Assembly: GCA_019058315.1 (NCBI GenBank)
Contig: JAHPZH010000003.1
Span: 748,451-812,450, forward strand
DNA: 64,000 nucleotides
Reading direction: 5' to 3'
From: Candidatus Helarchaeota archaeon
GTDB lineage: Archaea; Asgardarchaeota; Lokiarchaeia; Helarchaeales; RDOG01
Part shown: positions 36,139 through 47,271 of the stretch, one piece after another
Position numbering within the stretch: position 1 is the stretch's first letter
How the letters are laid out: each line of letters opens with the position of its first letter
Program-made: the position numbers and the translations under genes
Notes under the pieces: generated by a model
The model's input: the letters and a program-made list of their open reading frames with translations, nothing else
Told to the model about the DNA's origin: nothing
Databases searched by the model: none

Positions 36139-37692
36139 TTATGACACGTTTTTTTTCTTTTCTTCTTCACGTAGTGGGACTTTCATTATTTTCCCAGTCG
36201 GATTTTTAGGTAGATCATTGCGAAATTCCACATATTTAGGAATTTTAAAGTAAGCCAGATTTTTCTTACAGTATTCTATTATCTCTTCAGCAGTTGCAGT
36301 TTCTCCTTCTTTCATAACAATAAAGGCTTTAGGTAGTTCACCATAAATTTTATCATCTACTCCGATAACTGCTGCTAATGAAACACCAGGAAAGGTATAT
36401 AAAACTTCTTCGATTTCCCGAGGATATATATTCTCTCCGCCTCGAATTATCATATCCTTCTTGCGATCAATAATATAAAAGAAGCCATCTTCATCTACAT
36501 AACCAACATCACCAGTATAAAGCCATCCTTCTTTCAAGGTCTTAGCATTTGCTTCGGGGTTTTTGAAGTATTCTTTCATAACGTTGTCCCCTTTGATTAT
36601 AATTTCTCCCCTAGTGTTTGGAGCTACATCATTTCCATTATCATCAACAATTTTCATTTCTGTACCAGGTAGAGGCAGACCAATACTACCTATTTTCCTT
36701 CTGTCTTCAGTTTCTGTGGGCATAGGATTAACAGATGAAGCACAAGTACCTTCTGTGAGACCATAACCTTCAATGACTATACAATTAAAAGTTTTTTCAA
36801 ATTCTTTCATGACTTCTACTGGCAATGGTGCGGCTCCGCAAATTAAAAATTCCAAAGACGATAAATCTAAATTTTCATGGGGCATTCTTAAGAGTATAGA
36901 AAGGATTGTCGGAACAGCACTAAAGGTAGATGCTTTATATTTTGCAACAATTTCCCAGTGTTGTTGTGCAGAAAATCCTGGAGTTAAAATACAACTCGCA
37001 CCAATTGTAAGTGGTGTCATCAATGTCACAACTTGGGCATTTACATGAAATAGAGGTAAAATTAACATAAATCTATAGTCTTCTCGAGGGTTAAGAGCTT
37101 CCATAATCATCTCAGCATTTCTTCTTATATTGAAGTGAGTTTGTAAGACTCCTTTAGGAAAACCTGTTGTTCCAGAAGTATAAAGGATTGCAGCTGGATC
37201 CACTTTTTCATTAATTTCAACTTTTGGTGGAGCTTTTGATGAAGCTTTATCCATCAGATCTTGATAATTTAACGTACCTTCCATCGGCTCCCCAATCAAA
37301 ATTATATGATTTAAATGGGGTAATTTATCTCGAACTTCGTTCACTATCCCCATGAATTTAGGAATTGTAACTAGAATTTTTGCCTCAGAATGATTAACTA
37401 CAAATTGAGTTTCACGTGATTTAAAGTGTGCATTGACCGGACCAGCAACTGCACCTAATTTTGGAACACCTAAATAAAAATATACAAATTCGGGCATGTT
37501 AGGCAGAAATATACTTACTTTATCACCTTTTCGGATTCCTAAATTGTATAATAGATTTGCAACTTTATTTGTGATTTCATTTAATTGAGAATATGTAATT
37601 TCCATATCTTCCCAATAAATAAATACCTTATCTCCGTATTTCTTTGCTTGTTTTTCTACTAAATCACCAATTGTCATTCGAATTATCTCCAT
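36139..37692 (-). CDS. Long-chain acyl-CoA ligase (AMP-forming)
   Basis: YTSGTTGFPKG, EGYGLTE, YTGD, DRKKDMIIRGGEN, PKNPTGK. Confidence 0.95.
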   Translation of the reverse strand: MEIIRMTIGDLVEKQAKKYGDKVFIYWEDMEITYSQLNEITNKVANLLYNLGIRKGDKVSIFLPNMPEFVYFYLGVPKLGAVAGPVNAHFKSRETQFVVNHSEAKILVTIPKFMGIVNEVRDKLPHLNHIILIGEPMEGTLNYQDLMDKASSKAPPKVEINEKVDPAAILYTSGTTGFPKGVLQTHFNIRRNAEMIMEALNPREDYRFMLILPLFHVNAQVVTLMTPLTIGASCILTPGFSAQQHWEIVAKYKASTFSAVPTILSILLRMPHENLDLSSLEFLICGAAPLPVEVMKEFEKTFNCIVIEGYGLTEGTCASSVNPMPTETEDRRKIGSIGLPLPGTEMKIVDDNGNDVAPNTRGEIIIKGDNVMKEYFKNPEANAKTLKEGWLYTGDVGYVDEDGFFYIIDRKKDMIIRGGENIYPREIEEVLYTFPGVSLAAVIGVDDKIYGELPKAFIVMKEGETATAEEIIEYCKKNLAYFKIPKYVEFRNDLPKNPTGKIMKVPLREEEKKKNVS

Positions 37693-37767
37693 TTAGCTAA
37701 AAATAAATTATAAGAAAATTATAATAATCTTGTTTGCTGAGTTAAAAAAGTTAATTGGTGATTTTGA

Positions 37768-40092
37768 ATGGTATTAAGTTGTCTTTATAACGAAGAAGAA
37801 AATCAATTTAGAGAGCAAGTAAAGACATTTATAAAAGCTAAAATTTTACCATATGTCGAAGAAATTGAAAGTGGTAAATATCCACGTGAATTATTAAGAT
37901 TATTGGGAGAGAAAGGTTATTTAGGATTAACACACAGTAAAGAATATGGGGGTTCGGATAAAGGATGGGTATATGAAACAATAGTTTCAGAGGAATTAGG
38001 CGCAGCAAACGGAGCGTTGGATATGGCTCGTGGAGCAACTTGTATTTTATTCGGAACTCCTGTTTCGAGTTTTGGAACTCACGAACAGAAATTAAAATAT
38101 TTAAAACCTGTCTTATCTGGTGAAAAACTTGCTTGCATCGGCATAACAGAACCAGATGTTGGCTCTGATACCGCAGGAATGAAAACTAACGCATATAAAG
38201 ATGGAGATTTGTGGGTCATCAACGGAGAAAAACGTTTTATTACAAATGGTAGTGAAGCGGATTATATTTGCCTATTTGGAATTACTGATAAAAATGTATC
38301 ATCCCATCATGGAATGAGTGCATTCATTTTCCCTACAGACACTCCTGGTTTTGAAGTTGTTAAAGTTTATGATTTGCTGGGTATGCATGGAACCCAAACC
38401 GCACAATTAAAATTCAATAATTGTCGTATTCCGTTGGAAAATCTTCTTGGGAAAGAAAATGCAGGTTTTCAGATTCTTATGGATGAATTAGATAAAGAAC
38501 GAACATTTTATTCAGGAACACTTGCGGGAATTGCACGCTCCGCATTCGAAATAGCAACAAAATATTCAACTGAAAGAGTTCAATTTGGACAGCCGATTAG
38601 TAGATATGAGGGAGTTAGTTTCAAAATTGCAGATATGGCAATTAAATTGGAGGCAATTCATACTTTACTTTTAAGATCTGCACGATTATGTGATCAAAAC
38701 ATCCCAGCGACTAAAGAGTCAGCTATTGCAAAGATTGCAGCCAGTGATTTTGGTTTCGAAATCTGTTGTGATGCTGTTCAAGTATTGGCAGGAATAGGTT
38801 ATACAAAGGAATATCCTGTTGAGCGTTTTATGCGTGATATTAAGCTAGGAATGATTGGTGCAGGTACAAGTGAAATTATGAAGTTTCTAATACAAAGGGA
38901 GGTCTATAGAGAATTTAAAAAGGGGTTAGAGGGAAATAGTCAATTGTTTTATACTGAAGAAGAAAACCAACTTCGGAATGAAGTAAAAGATTTTGTAAGT
39001 AGAGAAGTTATACCGCATTTAGATGTGATTCACAAGGGAGAATATCACCGATCTCTTATCAAAGCATTAGGCTCGAATGGCTTTTTGGGTTATACTCATC
39101 CAAAAGCATATGGAGGACAGGAGAAAGGATGGGTGCAGGAGTCTATTATTGCAGAAGAGGTATCTCGAGCAAGTGGTACTGCTAATATGATCCGCGGAGC
39201 CTCTTGTTTGCTTTTTGGAAAGCCAATTCGATTATTTGGAACTGAAGAACAAAAGCAGAAATATCTCAAAGAAGTCATAAAAGGAGAAAAAATCGGATGT
39301 TTAGGTGTTACTGAGCCAGAAGCCGGAAGTGATGTTTCCAGAATACAAACATATGCAACTAAGAAAGGCGATTCATATATTATTAATGGTGAAAAAAGAT
39401 TTATTACAAACGGAGGTATAGCAGATTATATTTTAGTATTTGCATTATCTGATAAAAATGCCCCTCCTCGGCAAAATATGAGTTCTTATATTGTTCCCAC
39501 TGACATTTCAGGGTTTAAGGTGGAAAAAGTTTATAAGCTTCACGGAATGCAAGGAACACTTGCTTCCCATCTAAAATTCGAGGATTGTGAAATACCAATT
39601 GAGAACCGATTGGGGAATGAGAATCAAGGATTTGAAATTATGATGAACCAATTTGACACTGAGAGAATCATTTTTGCTACAACTATTCTTGGAGTAATGC
39701 AAGCTGCATTCGATATTGTAAAAGACTACTCACTTAAACGTGTTCAATTTGGTAGACCAATTAGTCAATTTGAAGGTGTAAACTTTAAAATTGCTGATAT
39801 GGCAATAAAGATCGAGGCAGCTTCAGCTTTAATACTTAAGGCAGCGCGTCTTGTTGATAAAGGGGAAAAAATACCAATGTTATCTGCTATCACGAAAGTA
39901 TTCGCAAGTGATTATGGTCTAGAAGTAGTTAATGATGCACTCCAAGTTATGGGAGGTATTGGTTACACGAGCGAGTACCCTATGGAGAGGTTACTTCGTG
40001 ATGTTCGCCTAGGAAAAATAGGAGCTGGAAGTTCAGAAGTCTTGCGCTATCTAATACAAAGAGAAATTTATAAAAAAATTAAGAAGAAATAA
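37768..40092 (+). CDS. Fused double acyl-CoA dehydrogenase
   Basis: Two complete ACAD units, each with TEP..GSD, INGEKRFITNG, R.QFG.PI, G.GY..EYP.ER..RD. Confidence 0.93.
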   Translation: MVLSCLYNEEENQFREQVKTFIKAKILPYVEEIESGKYPRELLRLLGEKGYLGLTHSKEYGGSDKGWVYETIVSEELGAANGALDMARGATCILFGTPVSSFGTHEQKLKYLKPVLSGEKLACIGITEPDVGSDTAGMKTNAYKDGDLWVINGEKRFITNGSEADYICLFGITDKNVSSHHGMSAFIFPTDTPGFEVVKVYDLLGMHGTQTAQLKFNNCRIPLENLLGKENAGFQILMDELDKERTFYSGTLAGIARSAFEIATKYSTERVQFGQPISRYEGVSFKIADMAIKLEAIHTLLLRSARLCDQNIPATKESAIAKIAASDFGFEICCDAVQVLAGIGYTKEYPVERFMRDIKLGMIGAGTSEIMKFLIQREVYREFKKGLEGNSQLFYTEEENQLRNEVKDFVSREVIPHLDVIHKGEYHRSLIKALGSNGFLGYTHPKAYGGQEKGWVQESIIAEEVSRASGTANMIRGASCLLFGKPIRLFGTEEQKQKYLKEVIKGEKIGCLGVTEPEAGSDVSRIQTYATKKGDSYIINGEKRFITNGGIADYILVFALSDKNAPPRQNMSSYIVPTDISGFKVEKVYKLHGMQGTLASHLKFEDCEIPIENRLGNENQGFEIMMNQFDTERIIFATTILGVMQAAFDIVKDYSLKRVQFGRPISQFEGVNFKIADMAIKIEAASALILKAARLVDKGEKIPMLSAITKVFASDYGLEVVNDALQVMGGIGYTSEYPMERLLRDVRLGKIGAGSSEVLRYLIQREIYKKIKKK

Positions 40093-40096
40093 TGAA

Positions 40097-42607
40097 TTAT
40101 ACTTTAATTCCTGCCTGTCTAAGTAAAAATCGTAGGAGATTTGCTACTCTATTTGGTAATTCTGAAATATTTACGGGATTAATTACTAAAAAATTCTTCT
40201 CTCCGTAAATCTGTTTTTGATAATTCGTAGCGCTATCAATGCTAATACAAAGCACATGTATATGTTTTTGTCTTGCATTTTCAACAGCTTGTCGAGTTAA
40301 GTTTATTCCAATATTTCCAGCTTCATAGTATAGACTTATATTATTGTATCTACTTAAATTCTGAAGTCTTCTTTTTTGAAAACTATATGTTCCCGCTGAT
40401 GGTTGTCCATCACTTAAGACTAGAAGAACCTTTAACTTTTTTTTGGTTTTAAGTAATTGTTTTGTTGAATAATTTATTGCATTATGATCCGAATTATTCG
40501 CATATGATATAATATCTGCCAATTTTGATTTAATTTCATAATAATCTTCATCGAAATTCTTGTATGCAAAAAGAGTAAATATTTCAGGATTAATTTCACG
40601 TGGAAATGGTTCTCTGACTTGTGGAATATTCACATTAAAAGTATGACTTCTAGGATAATTTATATCAGTCCAACCATAAACAGAAAAACTAATATCTAAT
40701 GCGCTTAATACCTCGCTAAATAAGATGGCCGCAAGTCGGGCATTTTCTATTTTCGGACCATTCATACTTCCGCTTTGATCTATTAACAAAGTGATAGCTA
40801 TCTGATTTCTACTATTAACCAATAAGTTTTTTTTGAAAATATGAGGATCTTGTCTAACTATTCCCCTTACAATTTGTTTAGTGTCTAATCTACCTGATTT
40901 CAATTGACTAGTTCGATCAGTGCCCAATTTAAATAATGATTTAAATTGATTGACAGTTATATGAATTAAATTATTAATTGATTTCCTTATCCGTTCAAAT
41001 CCAGCAGAGCTATAAGAATTTGGATGAATCGGCATTACAATTCCGATATCGTTAGTTTCCGTTTTAAAAACATCAATAAAATCATTGTTTGCTCTTAATC
41101 TTTTTAAAACATTATTGATTTTCCTTTCAAGTTCTTTATCCTTCAATATTTTTATGTTTCGTTTAGTTAAATCGTCAATCTTGATACGTAATGATGTTGT
41201 ATCGATCAAGTTCCTTTTAAAAGGATCGAGATCTTGTGAATTAACAATGGGAACTTCCATTTCATTTAATTTGTTAGGAGTATCTTGTTCTTCCTTTTCC
41301 ATTCCACCAGATTCTCTTGAACCTAATTTGCCTGAAATATATTTCTTTGAAGAATTGGATTTACTCAAATTGGATTTTGAATGTTGTTTTTTATTTTGTT
41401 GAGTTTTTGAATTTTCATTCAAATTTTTGATAGCGTTTTCCTGAGATTCTACGTTTTTTGATGAATCTGACTCTCTTTCTTCTTGATATTTTTCATTTAA
41501 TGTTTTATTATTAGAATCTGTTATATCTGACGATTCATTTTGTTCTTTCTGATTAGTTTCTTCGTTTTTTTCATTTTTGTTAGAGCCTAATTTCTCACTA
41601 GGTATAGATTGACCTTTTTCATTCGATATTTGTTCTAGATCTTCTGTTTCAGATTGTTTTCCATAAGATCCTTTTCTTTCATTTGGTTTAGGACTTTTAT
41701 CTCTCCCAGACTTTCTTTCAGAACTTTGCTTCTTCTTTTGTTCTTCTTTAGTGGATTTATTTTTTTCCTTATTTTCTATTTGATTTTCTTTCTTTTTCTC
41801 TCTCTTTTGATCTTGCTTTTTTATCTCTTCTTTTAATTCTTTTAATATTTCTTGCATTTCTTTGGGTAGAGGTGGAGGATTACACTCTTCTTTGGATTTA
41901 TTTTGTGGTTTCACTTCAGGGAGAGGTGGTGTTTCCGAAGAATAATTGCCTTCTAATTCAAAAAATTCTAATAATAACGGTATGATTTTATCTGCAGCTT
42001 CGAATGATGCCCTGCAATTCTCTTGTTTTTTTGCCCAATAAATGTAAAAACTGGAAACGTAACATAGCTTTTCTAAATATTTATCTTCAATACGTTCCTT
42101 TATTCCATTAGTTAATGAGATCTCCAAAATGGCTTCAATAAATATTTGCCATTTAGGTTTTTCTTTAAAAGAGGGTCTTTTTTTAAGCCAATAACTATTT
42201 GCATAGTCAATTGCTAGTCGATTACCGTGAAATCTTTTTTTTCCGAGTTCTTCAATTCTTCCATCTTCGATAATATTCACTACATCTTTTGATATTTTTC
42301 CAATAAAAGGGATCTTTGATTTGAATTTATTTTCGTATTTTTTTACAAACTCTTTAAGTAGATCAATATCAGATTGAAATAATATATGCCAAGCTTCGTG
42401 AATTGCACCTGCTTCAAGGAAGACCCACCTTCTGGGTAAATCTAGATCATTTGGAGGTGGAGACAAGAAAATTGTTTCTCCATCTGTACAGCAAGCAGTA
42501 TTACTAAATTTCAAATCAATTTTTGGATCTTGAGAACATATAGCAATAGTTTTTTTTAGTTCTATGTAAGATGCTGGTCCAATTAATGGATCTGAATTAT
42601 TTTTGAT
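40097..42607 (-). CDS. VWA (MIDAS) protein with N-terminal zincin-like HExxH domain and long charged linker (CobT/NorD-like partner of MoxR AAA+)
   Basis: TDG..I.L, HEAWH, NIIEDGRIE; LLIDQSGSM, NSD, VLSDGQP. The frame is open to 42619 and the likely start is ATC at 42607 (the track uses TTG 42514). Confidence 0.85.
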   Translation of the reverse strand: MKNNSDPLIGPASYIELKKTIAICSQDPKIDLKFSNTACCTDGETIFLSPPPNDLDLPRRWVFLEAGAIHEAWHILFQSDIDLLKEFVKKYENKFKSKIPFIGKISKDVVNIIEDGRIEELGKKRFHGNRLAIDYANSYWLKKRPSFKEKPKWQIFIEAILEISLTNGIKERIEDKYLEKLCYVSSFYIYWAKKQENCRASFEAADKIIPLLLEFFELEGNYSSETPPLPEVKPQNKSKEECNPPPLPKEMQEILKELKEEIKKQDQKREKKKENQIENKEKNKSTKEEQKKKQSSERKSGRDKSPKPNERKGSYGKQSETEDLEQISNEKGQSIPSEKLGSNKNEKNEETNQKEQNESSDITDSNNKTLNEKYQEERESDSSKNVESQENAIKNLNENSKTQQNKKQHSKSNLSKSNSSKKYISGKLGSRESGGMEKEEQDTPNKLNEMEVPIVNSQDLDPFKRNLIDTTSLRIKIDDLTKRNIKILKDKELERKINNVLKRLRANNDFIDVFKTETNDIGIVMPIHPNSYSSAGFERIRKSINNLIHITVNQFKSLFKLGTDRTSQLKSGRLDTKQIVRGIVRQDPHIFKKNLLVNSRNQIAITLLIDQSGSMNGPKIENARLAAILFSEVLSALDISFSVYGWTDINYPRSHTFNVNIPQVREPFPREINPEIFTLFAYKNFDEDYYEIKSKLADIISYANNSDHNAINYSTKQLLKTKKKLKVLLVLSDGQPSAGTYSFQKRRLQNLSRYNNISLYYEAGNIGINLTRQAVENARQKHIHVLCISIDSATNYQKQIYGEKNFLVINPVNISELPNRVANLLRFLLRQAGIKV

Positions 42608-44783
42608 TAATAACTCCCCCTAAACATTTTTTTTTGCAATCATTACAGGTTTTGTGGTTTGAACTGTAACAGTAAGGGCAAATGTGATACTCTTTCCTTT
42701 CGTTTGGATTGATCTTTAATAATGAATAACCATGTTCAAGACATGTGTCTTTTAATATAGATATTTCTCCTTGAATGGGTAAAGAAAAGAATGTTTTACA
42801 ATTTAAACACAATAATATTCTCTTTTTGCCATTCATAACATCCATTTCTTTGTGACATTTAGGACAGATGATAACATCATCCCTATATTTTTTACTGGTC
42901 CTTTCTTCTTCTTTTATTTGGATTCTAATATCATGATTCTTACATTTTTTATTATTACAATAGAAATTAATCCAACTAAAAAGCGTTGGTATTTTATTCA
43001 TCCGATTATTACAATCAAGACAAATAACTCTATAACTATCTCTTGTGTTTTCAATCATGAATTTATGGTGTTTTTTACAATATTTACAAGAATATCTTAA
43101 GTTTCCCATTAAATCAGTTTGATGATCTTCAATAATCTTGTTAGAAGCAATACATTTAATAACAAATTTTTTCTCGAGTGCCAGTAAATATGCTTTCTTA
43201 TTATTTTTAAATGAATTTTTCCTATTCTTATACCCTGAATTCTTTTTCTCCCTAACATTTGGTTTAGAAGGTTTATCTGATTTTATTACTTGCAGTTCTC
43301 TGTTGAAAGCGTTCTGATTTCGAAGTTTAAATAAGTCATCAATTGTTATATCCAGTCCATTTTTAAGTGAGTTTAGATCTTTCTCGTTTACTACCTCTTT
43401 CGCACCTAAAATTTGTTTTACTGCTTTAAATATAGTTCTTATATAGTCATTATATGTGGAAGGTTCTACATTTGCTTTTATCCCTTCCCGAACATATTTT
43501 TCTAAAATCGGATCAACCAACGTTTTTAAAATTGCCTCTGTTACGGTATTATTTTCAAATAGTGCTTCACTAAAATTGATTATGTGTCGAGTCCCAAGTT
43601 GCATAGCCATCATTCCCAAATCCCCTTGTTGGATTGTACTTCTAATTGAAAAACAAATGTCAGTCATACTCCTCAAGAAGTGTCTTGTGGTAGTTTTTTT
43701 CCGTTCATAACCAATGTTTAAAGCTTGAAATTCTTGATCATCTACATTCATAGCAATAATTTTTTGAATATCTTGTTTCGATGGAAATGGTATATCACAG
43801 AAAATAAATCTTGATGAAACACTTCCTGTTTCATCTTCCCCTAAAGTCTCTCCTTCCGGATTATAATTTGCAATTACAAGTAGATTTTCCTTGGGACAAT
43901 CCAATAAAATGTCTACGCCAGAAATCTTTTTTTCAATTCTTCTTTCCTGTAAAAAATCATTTAAATCTTTAATGACTTTTGTGGGCCATTGATTAATTTC
44001 TTCTAAAACTAAAATAATACGTTTGCCTTCTTTAGCAAGTGTCATTGCATCATGAATTTGTCCTTTTTCGGGAACTGTAGAGCCTTCTTTTAACCCTTTT
44101 TCCACCACAAGGCTTGCAACGTCCATATTTTTATCTGGTTGAATTGTAATCACATGTGGAAAGGTCCCATTTTTCTTCCACAATTCAGGAAGGATACTTT
44201 TTGCAAAATAAGACTTTCCAACACCAGGAGGACCTCTTAATGCTAAATTACTTGTTTGACGCATGCAATAGAAGGTTGTGGCAATGATTTTATTTGAAAC
44301 ATCGACGAATTTAAGCTGAGTTAATTTTTCTTGTAGTTTTTTTTCGTATTTGTCTTCTAATTTTTTAGAATCTTCTTCCATAATTTTTTCTAAACTTTTA
44401 AATTCCTTAATTTCACTAATTAAAAGATAACTTGTAAAATAATCATCTTCTTTTATGGCATCTTCGAGGAGAAAACCAAATTGTTTAGCTAATTCTAACT
44501 TTTCTTTATTTTCTTTCGAAATTTTCTTCTCTTTAACGATTTTTTTAGCTTTTTGAATTTTTTTTGATTTTATTGTTTTCTTTTTTTTAGCTTTCTTCTT
44601 TTTATTTTTCTTTTTCTTAATATTCTTTGTTTTTATTCTCTTAATTTCTATACTATTTTTAATAAATTTGGTTACCAAAACTTTACATTTATCGCAATGA
44701 TAAGAAAACGGAGGTTTTTTGCTAAGATCTAAAATCGTTTCTCCTCCACAGTAAGGACAATACGTTTCTTCTGAATGAGACAT
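42597..44783 (-). CDS. MoxR-type AAA+ ATPase with N-terminal Zn ribbon/Lys-rich segment and C-terminal multi-zinc-finger tail
   Basis: Walker A GPPGVGKS, Walker B LVLEEIN, sensor-1 ANYNP, Arg finger SSRF, sensor-2-like GTR; multiple CxxC pairs at both ends. Confidence 0.88.
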   Translation of the reverse strand: MSHSEETYCPYCGGETILDLSKKPPFSYHCDKCKVLVTKFIKNSIEIKRIKTKNIKKKKNKKKKAKKKKTIKSKKIQKAKKIVKEKKISKENKEKLELAKQFGFLLEDAIKEDDYFTSYLLISEIKEFKSLEKIMEEDSKKLEDKYEKKLQEKLTQLKFVDVSNKIIATTFYCMRQTSNLALRGPPGVGKSYFAKSILPELWKKNGTFPHVITIQPDKNMDVASLVVEKGLKEGSTVPEKGQIHDAMTLAKEGKRIILVLEEINQWPTKVIKDLNDFLQERRIEKKISGVDILLDCPKENLLVIANYNPEGETLGEDETGSVSSRFIFCDIPFPSKQDIQKIIAMNVDDQEFQALNIGYERKKTTTRHFLRSMTDICFSIRSTIQQGDLGMMAMQLGTRHIINFSEALFENNTVTEAILKTLVDPILEKYVREGIKANVEPSTYNDYIRTIFKAVKQILGAKEVVNEKDLNSLKNGLDITIDDLFKLRNQNAFNRELQVIKSDKPSKPNVREKKNSGYKNRKNSFKNNKKAYLLALEKKFVIKCIASNKIIEDHQTDLMGNLRYSCKYCKKHHKFMIENTRDSYRVICLDCNNRMNKIPTLFSWINFYCNNKKCKNHDIRIQIKEEERTSKKYRDDVIICPKCHKEMDVMNGKKRILLCLNCKTFFSLPIQGEISILKDTCLEHGYSLLKINPNERKEYHICPYCYSSNHKTCNDCKKKCLGGVINQK

Positions 44784-44927
44784 TTTTTATTCCTTCTTTC
44801 AAATTGGATTTTAGGATCTTTTCTAATTTTTTTAAATAGGCTTTGAAATTGAAAAGATCAAGAGCCAAATGTTGATTTCCAATTATAATTCAAATCATTA
44901 AACCTCCTAACTCATATTTTTTTATAT

Positions 44928-45011
44928 TTATGAAAGTTCTAAATCCCTATTTTTTAAGAATTTAATAGGATCGATGTAAAATTTGAGTTTTTCAAATTTT
45001 TTTACTTTCAT
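44928..45011 (-). CDS. Possible 27-aa leader/small protein
   Basis: ATG at 45011 gives MKVKKFEKLKFYIDPIKFLKNRDLELS*, just downstream of the promoter. Confidence 0.3.
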   Translation of the reverse strand: MKVKKFEKLKFYIDPIKFLKNRDLELS

Positions 45012-45030
45012 AAATACTCACTATTATTAT

Positions 45031-45085
45031 GAAATGCGCAACCAATAAGTTTTTAATATATAAAGGGTCGAAAATGCGCAATTTC
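45031..45085 (-). promoter_or_regulatory. TATA box flanked by two aaaTGCGCAa operator-like sites
   Basis: TGCGCA at 45035-40 and 45075-80 (40 bp apart) around minus-strand TTTATATA (45057-45064). Confidence 0.6.
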
Positions 45086-45213: not shown

Positions 45214-45570
45214 TTATTTTTTCCCTTTCAATGCCGCTGCAATCGCTCTGCCATAGCGGATTAGTTCCATCACTTTACCATTTTTAACCTCTATTTGTTC
45301 ACGGCTAATTGCATGGGTAAAGTCACCTTGTCCTCTGCTTGATCTGGCAATACCTTCACCATCGCCCGTAATTAGTAAAGATGGATTCGAATGTTTTCCA
45401 GAAGTTAAGTTTGCCTTGCCATTTTTTACTTCTATATAGAATGGCTCTTCTGTTTTTAAATCAAATTGAAAAATTACGTTCCAATTTTCAGCTACTAGTA
45501 TTTTTTGAGCCTTTGGATTATCATTAATTAATTTTAAAATTTTTTCTGATTCAGCCCTTGCTTCACCCAT
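45214..45570 (-). CDS. SCP2 sterol/lipid-carrier domain protein
   Basis: FQFDL..FYIEVKNGK....G...PSLLI..I.V..G pattern; SD GGAGGTG precedes ATG 45570. Confidence 0.8.
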   Translation of the reverse strand: MGEARAESEKILKLINDNPKAQKILVAENWNVIFQFDLKTEEPFYIEVKNGKANLTSGKHSNPSLLITGDGEGIARSSRGQGDFTHAISREQIEVKNGKVMELIRYGRAIAAALKGKK

Positions 45571-46063
45571 CGGATGCACCTCCACCTTCGTATTCTGGTT
45601 TATTTATCCACATTTCATATTCATCTATTGGGACAAAGAAAAAGTCAGTAATCTTACCCTCCCTTTCCTTTTTAAACACAGCTCTTACTTTTTTTCCAGC
45701 TTTAATTTTTGAGGGAACCAGACTTTCAGAAAATATTCCTTGATTAATTGCGGTACTTGCTCCTTCCAATTGGATGTATCCTACAGCATAGGGGATATAT
45801 TGAATAAAGGCAGATGTACTATACCAAACCAGTGTACTTACTTTAATTTCTCCAACATCCTTTATGGTAACCCATTCAGTTGGTTTATAACATTTAGCAC
45901 AAGCAACGCGAGGAGGGCAATAAGTCGTTCCACATTCTTTACATTTTGAACCTAAAATTCTTTTATTATCTCTTAACTCTATGAAAAACCTAGATTGTCC
46001 ACCATAACTGTATTTATAGTTCATAATGATTTGATCTTCAATTTCATGGTAATTTTCTGTCAT
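45563..46063 (-). CDS. DUF35 Zn-ribbon/OB-fold acyl-CoA-binding protein
   Basis: GSKCKECG..Y.PPR..C.KC, PYAVGYIQL, G.KV.AVF. Confidence 0.92.
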   Translation of the reverse strand: MTENYHEIEDQIIMNYKYSYGGQSRFFIELRDNKRILGSKCKECGTTYCPPRVACAKCYKPTEWVTIKDVGEIKVSTLVWYSTSAFIQYIPYAVGYIQLEGASTAINQGIFSESLVPSKIKAGKKVRAVFKKEREGKITDFFFVPIDEYEMWINKPEYEGGGASDG

Positions 46064-46065
46064 AT

Positions 46066-47271
46066 TTAGCCTCTCTCCATTACAATTATAGCAGAATACG
46101 CCGCACCAGGACCTCCTATTGAATGTGAGATTGCTCTTCCTTTTGAAATAGGCACTTGTCTTTTACCCGCTTTTTCTTTCAATTGCAAATAAGCCTCCCC
46201 AGTCGACATTATACCTGTAGCCCCAACAGCATGTCCACAGCCAATTAGCCCTCCTGAGGGACAACATGGTAATTCTCCAGACATTAAGGGTCCACCATCG
46301 TCAAGCCAATCGCCTCCCTTTCCATATTCCACGAATCCCAATTCTTCATAGGAAATAACTTCCTGTCCTGAAAATGCGTCATGTAATTCTGCAACATCAA
46401 TTTGATTTTTAATATTATTATAATCTAGTCCAGCCATTTTATATGCACGCTTTGCAGCTGCAATATTTGAAGGTAATGCGCCTATACTTTTTCTATTACC
46501 AATAAAAGCGTCAGTGCATGCGGCTCCTGCTCCTGTAATCCAAACAGGATCATCAATTTTTAATTGTTTTACCTTTTCTTCTGATGCTAAAATCAAAGCA
46601 GCCGAAGCTTCGGAATATAGACAACAATCTAACATTTTAAACGGATAACAAATTATACGTGAGTTTAGAACTTCTTCTACGGTTAATTTCATTGGTGATT
46701 GTGCCTTGGGGTTGTTCAGTGCATTTCCATGGTTCTTAATTGAGACTTTGGCCATTTGTTCTTCAGTGGGATTTCCGTATTTATCAATATGGGCGTTCAC
46801 TAGAACCACGTAACTTGAGGCTGCTAACATACCTAATGGGAATTCCCAAGTCATATCAGCAGAATAAGCAATTCCTTTTAGAACTTCGGGGGTTGTGGTA
46901 CCAGTTTGTTTATCATAACAATCATTACACTTTTCAACACCTAAAACTAAACAAATATCCGCAAGACCACTAGCAACTTCAGCGTATCCCGTTCGAACTG
47001 TAAAGCCCCCTGTCGCTCCCCCAGTAGTAATACGAGTTCCGGGTTTATCTATATTTCCAATATAGTCATTAACATAAATATCAGGCATAAATTGCCTTTC
47101 AAATAAATCATTGTAAATTCCATAAACTGCACTATCTATTTCTTTGATTGTAATTCCTGCGTCATTTAAACTTTCATTAGCTGCATCGTATGCTAATTCA
47201 AAATAAGTTTTTTCAGGCCATCTTGCCTTAAATGGAGTCATTCCAAATCCTATAATTGCTACTTTTCTCAT
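46066..47271 (-). CDS. SCP-x-type thiolase-fold protein lacking the catalytic Cys (Ltp2-like)
   Basis: GVEK, N...NPKAQ, ELHDAF, GHAVGATG; the nucleophile loop reads TTGGATGG instead of NACASG. Confidence 0.88.
   Translation of the reverse strand: MRKVAIIGFGMTPFKARWPEKTYFELAYDAANESLNDAGITIKEIDSAVYGIYNDLFERQFMPDIYVNDYIGNIDKPGTRITTGGATGGFTVRTGYAEVASGLADICLVLGVEKCNDCYDKQTGTTTPEVLKGIAYSADMTWEFPLGMLAASSYVVLVNAHIDKYGNPTEEQMAKVSIKNHGNALNNPKAQSPMKLTVEEVLNSRIICYPFKMLDCCLYSEASAALILASEEKVKQLKIDDPVWITGAGAACTDAFIGNRKSIGALPSNIAAAKRAYKMAGLDYNNIKNQIDVAELHDAFSGQEVISYEELGFVEYGKGGDWLDDGGPLMSGELPCCPSGGLIGCGHAVGATGIMSTGEAYLQLKEKAGKRQVPISKGRAISHSIGGPGAAYSAIIVMERG

Follow-up and report, generated by a model that had tools for sequence, protein, structure and literature searches.

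MoxR-class AAA+ ATPases encoded next to a VWA-domain protein are widespread, but only a few of these pairs have known clients and, to our knowledge, action on DNA-bound targets is not known for any of them. We analyzed one such pair in a 64,000-nucleotide stretch (the window) of contig JAHPZH010000003.1 from a Candidatus Helarchaeota archaeon. The two genes lie on the minus strand, in DNA of about 30% G+C, and encode an ATPase of 728 amino acids (aa) and a CobT-like VWA partner. Our results showed that the ATPase ends in a zinc module of the type found in human topoisomerase TOP3B, that this fusion is conserved in relatives, and that the relatives carry the pair beside nurA-herA-mre11-rad50. 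In archaea, the products of these four genes initiate homologous recombination.

Several described systems resemble the window pair in part. In NorQ-NorD and CbbQ-CbbO, an AAA_5 ATPase gene is likewise followed by a VWA gene with MIDAS (metal ion-dependent adhesion site), the core folds match, and a mechanism using an ATPase ring and a VWA finger is presumably common to them and the window pair (PMC13036017, PMC9976466). NorQ and CbbQ have about 260–270 aa, whereas the window ATPase is far longer and has a three-helix N-domain, a Lys-rich arm and zinc modules. Their Walker B motif contains DE instead of EE. The client of the window pair would be neither a respiratory enzyme nor Rubisco, and the relatives of the window family sit in a DNA-end-resection operon. 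The window partner also appears to have the layout of CobT, with an N-domain, a long flexible linker and a CobT_C-type VWA domain with MIDAS (bioRxiv 10.64898/2026.10.09.757910). In contrast to CobS-CobT, the window pair belongs to a genome (94% complete) in which no CobN was found, its partner N-domain has an invariant HExxH motif, and the partner scores far below the CobT equivalog cut-off (NCBIfam CobT, 30 bits versus 759).

The group 2.2 jumbo phages encode a MoxR ATPase together with a vWA protein that has an N-terminal metallopeptidase domain (Iyer et al. 2021, PMC7824862), which is similar to the window pair with its N-terminal HExxH domain. The phage pair was proposed to act in virion assembly, and neither a topoisomerase zinc module nor a link to mre11-rad50 has been reported there. 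Between the two, detectable similarity is limited to the VWA domain, and the tblastn matches of the partner in phages were to the VWA domain of phage CobT. The preliminary description of this locus had presented the pair as a candidate new system. This holds for part of it: the pairing of a MoxR ATPase with a metallopeptidase-vWA protein is known from these phages, and only the zinc-module fusion and the repair-operon context appear undescribed. A full-text literature search found no published description of a MoxR/vWA-topoisomerase zinc fusion or of a MoxR-VWA pair in an archaeal resection operon, and a 2026 review of NurA covering Asgard archaea does not mention such a pair in the resection operon.

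The C-terminal 190 residues of the ATPase contain 17 Cys. When the last 197 residues were searched against all PDB sequences with phmmer, the top match was human TOP3B (9cah_A, residues 624–703; E 2.7e-6 over 80 aa), and every TOP3B metal ligand was aligned. A profile built from 17 tails also matched TOP3B in the PDB (E 3.9e-4), together with the zinc ribbons of E. coli Topo I (E 2.7e-3). The model of the tail had a mean confidence (pLDDT) of 82.5, and its best PDB match in Foldseek was again 9cah_A (probability 1.00, TMq 0.66, root-mean-square deviation 3.1 Å over 90 columns, 30% identity), at a borderline E-value of 1e-3. The next fold matches were to E. coli Topo I with a TMq of 0.33.

This half of the TOP3B C-terminal domain (CTD) holds a C4 ribbon, a D1C3 site (C666, D669, C688, C691) and a C3 site (C706, C709, C714) (PMC11743793, PMC12077875). 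All three are found in register in the ATPase tail. Site 1 is the C4 ribbon C640/C643/C659/C662, site 2 is formed by C681-x2-H684 and C702-P-Y-C705, and site 3 by C713-x2-C716-x3-C720. The second ligand of site 2 is His in the window ATPase, Asp in TOP3B and Cys in most homologues. The tail and the CTDs of TOP3B and Asgard type IA topoisomerases have the same order and spacing of the metal sites and the same predicted fold. In contrast to these CTDs, the tail sits on an AAA+ ATPase, comprises only the TOP3B zinc-finger domain's first half and has no RGG box. The Pfam models Zn_ribbon_TOP3B (PF23546) and Zn_ribbon_Top1 (PF01396) were not listed for the tail alone, even at E up to 10, although both models recognise other proteins with the module. 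Pfam listed only weak generic ribbons and eS27 for the tail alone. In the phmmer search, ribosomal eS27 ribbons came far behind TOP3B (E 0.01–0.02); as these matches cover the first ribbon only, they were set aside as generic ribbon likeness. We conclude that the tail is a TOP3B-type topoisomerase CTD module, common to Asgard archaea and eukaryotes, that has been transplanted onto an AAA+ ATPase. The likeness of the last 90 or so residues to the TOP3B zinc fingers, first noticed motif by motif in the preliminary description, was borne out by both the sequence and the fold comparison.

The zinc domains of E. coli Topo I bind single-stranded DNA (ssDNA; title of PDB entry 4rul), and a nucleic-acid contact of the TOP3B CTD, upstream of the site of cleavage, was proposed (PMC11743793, as summarised in PMC12077875). 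A further Cys cluster in front of the module is common only to the window ATPase and its closest homologue, P0002. The idea that it is a duplicated topoisomerase ribbon found no support (hhalign probability 18%, not significant).

To find other carriers of the module, the tail profile was searched against 1.84 billion representative proteins, which gave 232 matches. The ten best matches outside the family were tested, and all of them have a type IA topoisomerase core with the match lying C-terminal to it. The named carriers are Lokiarchaeota, Heimdallarchaeota, Hodarchaeales and Odinarchaeota. Asgard topoisomerases matched the profile with E-values of 1e-18 to 1e-11, and their CTDs, as well as some stand-alone small proteins, align with the tail ligand for ligand. 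Further matches contain Zn_ribbon_TOP3B, Zn_ribbon_Top1 and GRF fingers. Because the small stand-alone proteins consist of little else, the module circulates as an independent unit. Three of them (P0026, P0029 and P0031, 121–163 aa) are barely more than a TOP3B-type module and are 36–41% identical to the ATPase tail.

The tail is nearer to TOP3B and to the topoisomerases of other Asgard archaea than to the single type IA topoisomerase of its own genome, which matches in the first ribbon only (profile E 7.7e-6, BLAST E 0.005) and was therefore rejected as the donor of the tail. This 760-aa enzyme (L005:931-3213, contig 1) is closest to Sulfolobus Topo III, and its TOP3B-type module is clear in the first ribbon only. 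Its C-terminal end is a long Lys-rich tail, similar to the Lys-rich arm of the ATPase.

In total, 19 ATPase homologues were found, in independent metagenomes with the source names Helarchaeota and Lokiarchaeota; all sequences of the family are metagenomic. The zinc tail is kept in 17 of the 19, so the fusion is no one-off. When 400 genomes of the phylum were searched in six frames, the family turned up in four: the own genome, another genome from the same family and two from the same order.

The genomic context of the pair was determined by tblastn of reference proteins and reading of the gene calls, which gave 12 distinct loci including the window. In each of the 12 loci, the partner gene adjoins the ATPase gene. 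The pair lies no more than 7 kb from mre11-rad50 in 11 of the 12 loci, and in eight of them it directly follows rad50 on the same strand. Seven of these eight are collinear as nurA-herA-mre11-rad50-AAA-VWA (L006/L024, L008, L009, L010, L011/L026, L025, L029); in L030 the order is rad50-AAA-VWA and the contig ends before the upstream genes. The gap between rad50 and the ATPase gene is 22–79 bp where both genes are called in full. The other three linked loci are rearranged. In L027, which holds the closest relative of the window ATPase, the pair and nurA-herA-mre11-rad50 are divergently oriented with 590 bp between them; L028 has one beta-CASP gene between mre11-rad50 and the pair; and L012 has an insert of 6.8 kb between rad50 and the pair. 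The window is the unlinked locus. The ATPases of the 12 loci are only 43–75% identical, so the linkage has persisted through considerable divergence and more than one rearrangement.

The four cluster proteins best matched the models of NurA, HerA, Mre11 and Rad50 from double-strand break (DSB) repair, and HerA scored 279 bits on the DSB-repair model versus 149 bits on the anti-phage HerA model. By these best matches, the linked genes look like the housekeeping resection set. Consistently, the Mre11 of the cluster is the sole Mre11 match in the genomes of three relatives. The repair-operon context supports a nucleic-acid-directed role of the pair, as judged from gene order, and does so independently of the tail.

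Other genes recur at the same clusters. A beta-CASP metallo-beta-lactamase gene (RNase J/aCPSF-like by NCBIfam) and a CARF-like HFX_2341_N/WHD_DUF6293 gene are repeatedly found beside the cluster, often with an HNH gene near (L009:12417-14749, and also L010, L011, L024, L025, L027, L028 and L029). One Helarchaeota locus has a second nurA-herA directly after the VWA gene (L006:10235-12859), and here resection genes lie to either side of the pair; in another locus a gene for a CHAT/C25 peptidase is found between rad50 and the pair. The two ATPases without the zinc tail, P0018 (L012:8001-9470) and P0017 (L028:6805-8427), are encoded by genes that no longer directly adjoin rad50, and the unlinked window ATPase is the member with the most zinc ribbons. 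That tail loss tracks broken adjacency (two cases), with the most ribbons in the unlinked window protein (one case), is only a lead.

The AAA+ core was recognised by Pfam AAA_5 (residues 180–313, 36.7 bits versus a gathering cut-off of 22). A sequence search of the core against the PDB gave no significant match, and a fold search was needed. The AlphaFold model of the core, built with 18 homologues, had a pLDDT of 83.1. The best PDB match of this model in Foldseek was NorQ (E 6e-12, TM-score by target 0.74–0.80), followed by CbbQ (E 1e-10) and then McrB. Since NorQ and CbbQ are the top structural matches, the core is, as modelled, of the MoxR class and CbbQ/NorQ-like, in agreement with the class given in the preliminary description. 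GPPGxGKS, LEE, SSRF and TR are the invariant motifs of the family, with the arginine of SSRF (motif at 323) and the sensor 2 Arg of GTR (motif at 397) both invariant. The EE of Walker B, which deviates from the canonical hhhhDE by D-to-E, is invariant across the 19 homologues.

The ATPase was described before as having an N-terminal ribbon, a Lys-rich segment, an LVLEE Walker B and a Cys-packed tail, and all of these were present when counted on the protein. In the alignment, the N-terminal ribbon is found only in the window ATPase and is missing in the 18 other homologues; on Pfam it gave weak generic zinc-ribbon matches only. Most homologues have a basic N-terminal arm, whose length varies. 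According to the open reading frame (ORF) list and the translation, the ATPase starts with the ATG at 44783. The frame 5' of it contains many stops up to 45085, the upper coordinate given earlier, which is about 300 nt too far.

The start of the partner gene is less clear. The open frame begins at 42619, but a protein starting at the first canonical codon (TTG 42514) would lack residues that do not vary among orthologues, and there is no ATG, GTG or TTG before the conserved N-terminus (window 42593–42622). The codon matching the ATG of the closest relative (L027) is an ATC at 42607-42605. A relative of the same family (L024) likewise has only ATT/ATC at this place. Initiation in this lineage may be non-canonical or coupled, or the sequences may contain errors. 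The partner was described before as overlapping the ATPase gene. The aligned ATC does fall within the 3' end of the ATPase gene, and orthologous pairs overlap by 4–13 nt or abut; because the start would be an ATC, an overlap with the last ATPase codons is likely rather than certain.

Similarly, the earlier reading of the partner as a zincin with a long linker and a MIDAS VWA domain was upheld in its motifs, whereas no match to a peptidase family or fold was found. HE(A/S)WH is invariant in seven orthologues, and IEDxRIE follows 40 residues downstream (in the alignment). The conserved N-terminal part spans about 230 residues and had no match in Pfam or among PDB sequences, nor to any peptidase family. 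In the ESM Atlas, the model of the orthologue P0195 has TM-scores of 0.72–0.85 to the N-domains of CobT/CobT_C proteins, many of them from phages. DUF2201_N had a feature score of 0.81 only. PF06213 (CobT N) matched the partner below the cut-off (E 0.009) and was missing in the seven orthologue N-domains scanned alone. A word-based homologue search with the N-domain returned only 10 orthologues, which their sources call 'CobT-related'. The N-domain is a candidate zincin, a candidate anchor to the ATPase lid, or both. At the other end of the protein, CobT_C (PF11775) scored 37.2 bits versus a cut-off of 21, and the MIDAS residues D614, S616, S618, T651 and S736-D737-G738 (orthologue alignment numbering) are invariant.

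Based on these results, we propose that the pair is a DNA-tethered MoxR-VWA remodeller, possibly also a protease, that assists DNA-end processing, and we give this reading a probability of roughly 55%. The two genes would encode an AAA+ ring of the MoxR class (NorQ/CbbQ/CobS-like) and a CobT-like VWA adaptor. Each ATPase subunit would be made DNA-directed by its C-terminal TOP3B-type zinc module and N-terminal Lys-rich arm, so that up to six zinc modules and basic arms could hold a hexamer on ssDNA or processed DNA ends. NorQD is the template for the mechanism (PMC13036017), and in CobST the N-domain of CobT sits on the small AAA+ domain or lid, with a flexible linker and the VWA finger in the pore (bioRxiv 10.64898/2026.10.09.757910). 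By analogy with NorQD, CbbQO and CobST, the partner N-domain would dock on the ATPase lid and the VWA finger would enter the ring pore. The MIDAS face would then grip an acidic residue of a DNA-bound client protein, and ATP hydrolysis would twist or pull this client. The likeliest clients would be parts of the Mre11-Rad50 and HerA-NurA end-resection machinery, or obstacles to it. As an outcome, complexes may be released or turned over, or proteins blocking DNA ends may be removed, and the invariant HExxH of the partner may add proteolysis of the client. In its own genome, the pair would be expressed from its own locus, apart from the resection operon.

Several observations weigh against this proposal. 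MoxR-VWA pairs are best known for the insertion of metal cofactors, not for work on DNA. The pair is unlinked from the repair operon in its own genome, so the argument for a repair role runs by orthology. Only one order contains the family, and a related genome has Mre11 without the pair; from this narrow range and this relative, the pair is an accessory and not a core factor. Two of the 19 homologues (P0017, P0018) have lost the tail and retain a degenerate CxxC remnant. The peptidase assignment comes from the HExxH motif and nothing else. The recurring CARF-like regulator, HNH and beta-CASP neighbours could also fit a conflict system. Moreover, the homologous half of the TOP3B CTD also contacts proteins, namely the topoisomerase core and TDRD3 (PMC11743793), and because of these contacts the tail could be a protein-docking instead of a DNA-binding unit.

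If the tail only keeps the motor near DNA-bound clients, the pair could be a maturation chaperone that loads or exchanges metals (Mn2+ of Mre11 or NurA, Zn2+ of the Rad50 hook) or puts the complexes together. The characterised MoxR-VWA systems, NorQD, CobST, CoxD and MoxR, insert metals or activate metalloenzymes (PMC13036017, PMC9976466, PMC12276312). The closest folds of the ATPase are NorQ and CbbQ, the partner is CobT-like, and the operon neighbours are all metal-dependent enzymes. However, all other archaea run Mre11, Rad50 and NurA without such a chaperone, cofactor insertion needs no DNA-binding module on each ATPase subunit, and the invariant HExxH would be left unexplained, so we regard a chaperone as unlikely. 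A further reading, a cobaltochelatase-type CobS/CobT motor misplaced in the genome, was rejected and is close to refuted. In its favour are weak matches to Pfam CobT_C and NCBIfam CobT and the name 'CobT-related' given by the sources of the orthologues. Against it, the NCBIfam CobT score falls far short of its cut-off as given above, no homologue of CobN (PF02514) or ChlH was found in the own genome (94% complete), and 12 of 12 loci are without cobalamin genes.

A defence role, which had been raised before, found no support in PADLOC-DB 2.0, where the ATPase had chance-level P-loop matches only and the partner none. In the case of a conflict module, invading DNA or its proteins would be sensed and destroyed by the cluster as a whole or, in its own genome, by the pair alone, with the zinc module aimed at foreign nucleic acid and the VWA/HExxH protein as effector. 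The MoxR and metallopeptidase-vWA pair of jumbo phages (PMC7824862), the phage CobT-like proteins that are the nearest look-alikes of the partner N-domain, the patchy taxonomic distribution and the cluster neighbours (CARF-like HFX_2341_N/WHD, HNH and beta-CASP nuclease genes, with a CHAT/C25 peptidase in one locus and a second nurA-herA in another) are in line with it. The linked Mre11 being the only one in three genomes and the fit of HerA to the DSB-repair model over the anti-phage model point the other way, as do the window neighbours, which are genes of acyl-CoA metabolism and form no defence island; we consider this role improbable. It is also conceivable that the tail copies the topoisomerase CTD as a decoy or for docking, and that it brings the ring not to naked DNA but to the cell's type IA topoisomerase or to covalent complexes in which this enzyme is trapped. 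The homologous half of the TOP3B CTD packs on the topoisomerase core and TDRD3 (PMC11743793), the D1C3 site of TOP3B is needed to resolve covalent intermediates (PMC12077875), and the own topoisomerase has the module clear in its first ribbon only. Nevertheless, the pair is not linked to a topoisomerase gene in any locus and the own topoisomerase gene is on another contig, which makes such a target very unlikely.

A more specific version of the proposed DNA-tethered remodeller brings to mind a eukaryotic system, in which the AAA+ unfoldase Cdc48/p97 and the DNA-dependent HExxH protease Wss1/SPRTN remove DNA-protein crosslinks. The likeness to the window pair is a functional analogy only. A sequence or fold relationship is lacking, as far as the Pfam and PDB searches of the partner N-domain go, which yielded no peptidase family; the AAA+ clade is different and the window system has no ubiquitin or SUMO elements. 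It is possible, although doubtful, that Helarchaeales added a DNA-anchored AAA+/VWA/HExxH machine to the resection operon that strips or digests proteins blocking or crosslinked to DNA (e.g. trapped topoisomerase complexes), as a prokaryotic functional counterpart of p97/Cdc48 and SPRTN/Wss1 made from unrelated parts. If this were true, the machine would work with the topoisomerase zinc module that eukaryotes, too, have kept in TOP3B.

For work on MoxR-VWA pairs, a motor that has an identifiable DNA-binding module and, in relatives, shares an operon with the four recombination-initiating proteins offers a small, testable set of candidate clients. The three-site zinc module of human TOP3B, one site of which is the target of an autism-linked mutation, was already present in Asgard archaea and is mobile between proteins, and its Asgard copies can serve as simple prokaryotic models for studying the TOP3B module. 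The narrow taxonomic range limits the weight of the finding. The features of the two genes are listed in Table 1.

Table 1. Features of the ATPase and partner genes, in window coordinates.
Feature	Position	Strand	Basis
AAA+ ATPase gene, MoxR class with zinc-ribbon and Lys-rich additions	42597..44783	(-)	ORF list and translation; Pfam AAA_5 E 5e-9; 19 homologues
N-terminal CxxC..CxxC zinc ribbon, residues 9-33	44685..44759	(-)	CPYC at 9 and CDKC at 30
Lys-rich arm, residues 51-100	44484..44633	(-)	27 Lys in 50 aa
Three-helix N-domain, AAA+ core and lid, residues 101-515	43239..44483	(-)	AlphaFold model and motifs
Walker A GPPGVGKS, residue 184	44211-44234	(-)	Motif
Walker B ILVLEE, residues 257-262	43998-44015	(-)	Motif
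Extra Cys cluster (CKYC, CLDC, C..CKNH), residues ~545-620	42924..43151	(-)	Alignment
TOP3B-type topoisomerase IA C-terminal zinc module, residues 634-728	42600..42884	(-)	phmmer, profile, Foldseek, alignment
CobT-like VWA partner gene	40097..~42607	(-)	Pfam CobT_C E 3.3e-9; orthologue alignment; start uncertain
Partner N-domain, CobT-N-like fold, HEAWH and IEDGRIE	41945..42592	(-)	Invariant columns in 7 orthologues; Atlas model
HEAWH (H74-E75-x-x-H78)	42386-42400	(-)	Invariant
Charged low-complexity linker, ~240 aa	41228..41944	(-)	Variable, unalignable between orthologues
VWA domain, complete MIDAS	40100..40942	(-)	Pfam CobT_C and VWA; invariant columns
DQSGS (MIDAS DxSxS)	40766-40780	(-)	Motif

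In the window, the pair breaks up a group of genes for acyl-CoA metabolism, whose products are an AMP-binding ligase, a double acyl-CoA dehydrogenase, a ChsH2-like protein and a thiolase (window 36139-40092 and 45563-47271). No Rad50 remnants were found beside the pair in the window. AMP-binding ligase genes also lie just past the VWA gene in L012 and L030, and their products are 33–34% identical to that of the window. The own genome has an intact nurA-herA-mre11-rad50 operon on contig 3 (L039:10296-16397), in which Rad50 is short (676 aa). A second, divergent nurA-herA is found on contig 1 (L015:7810-10475), beside a region with an RPA-like gene.

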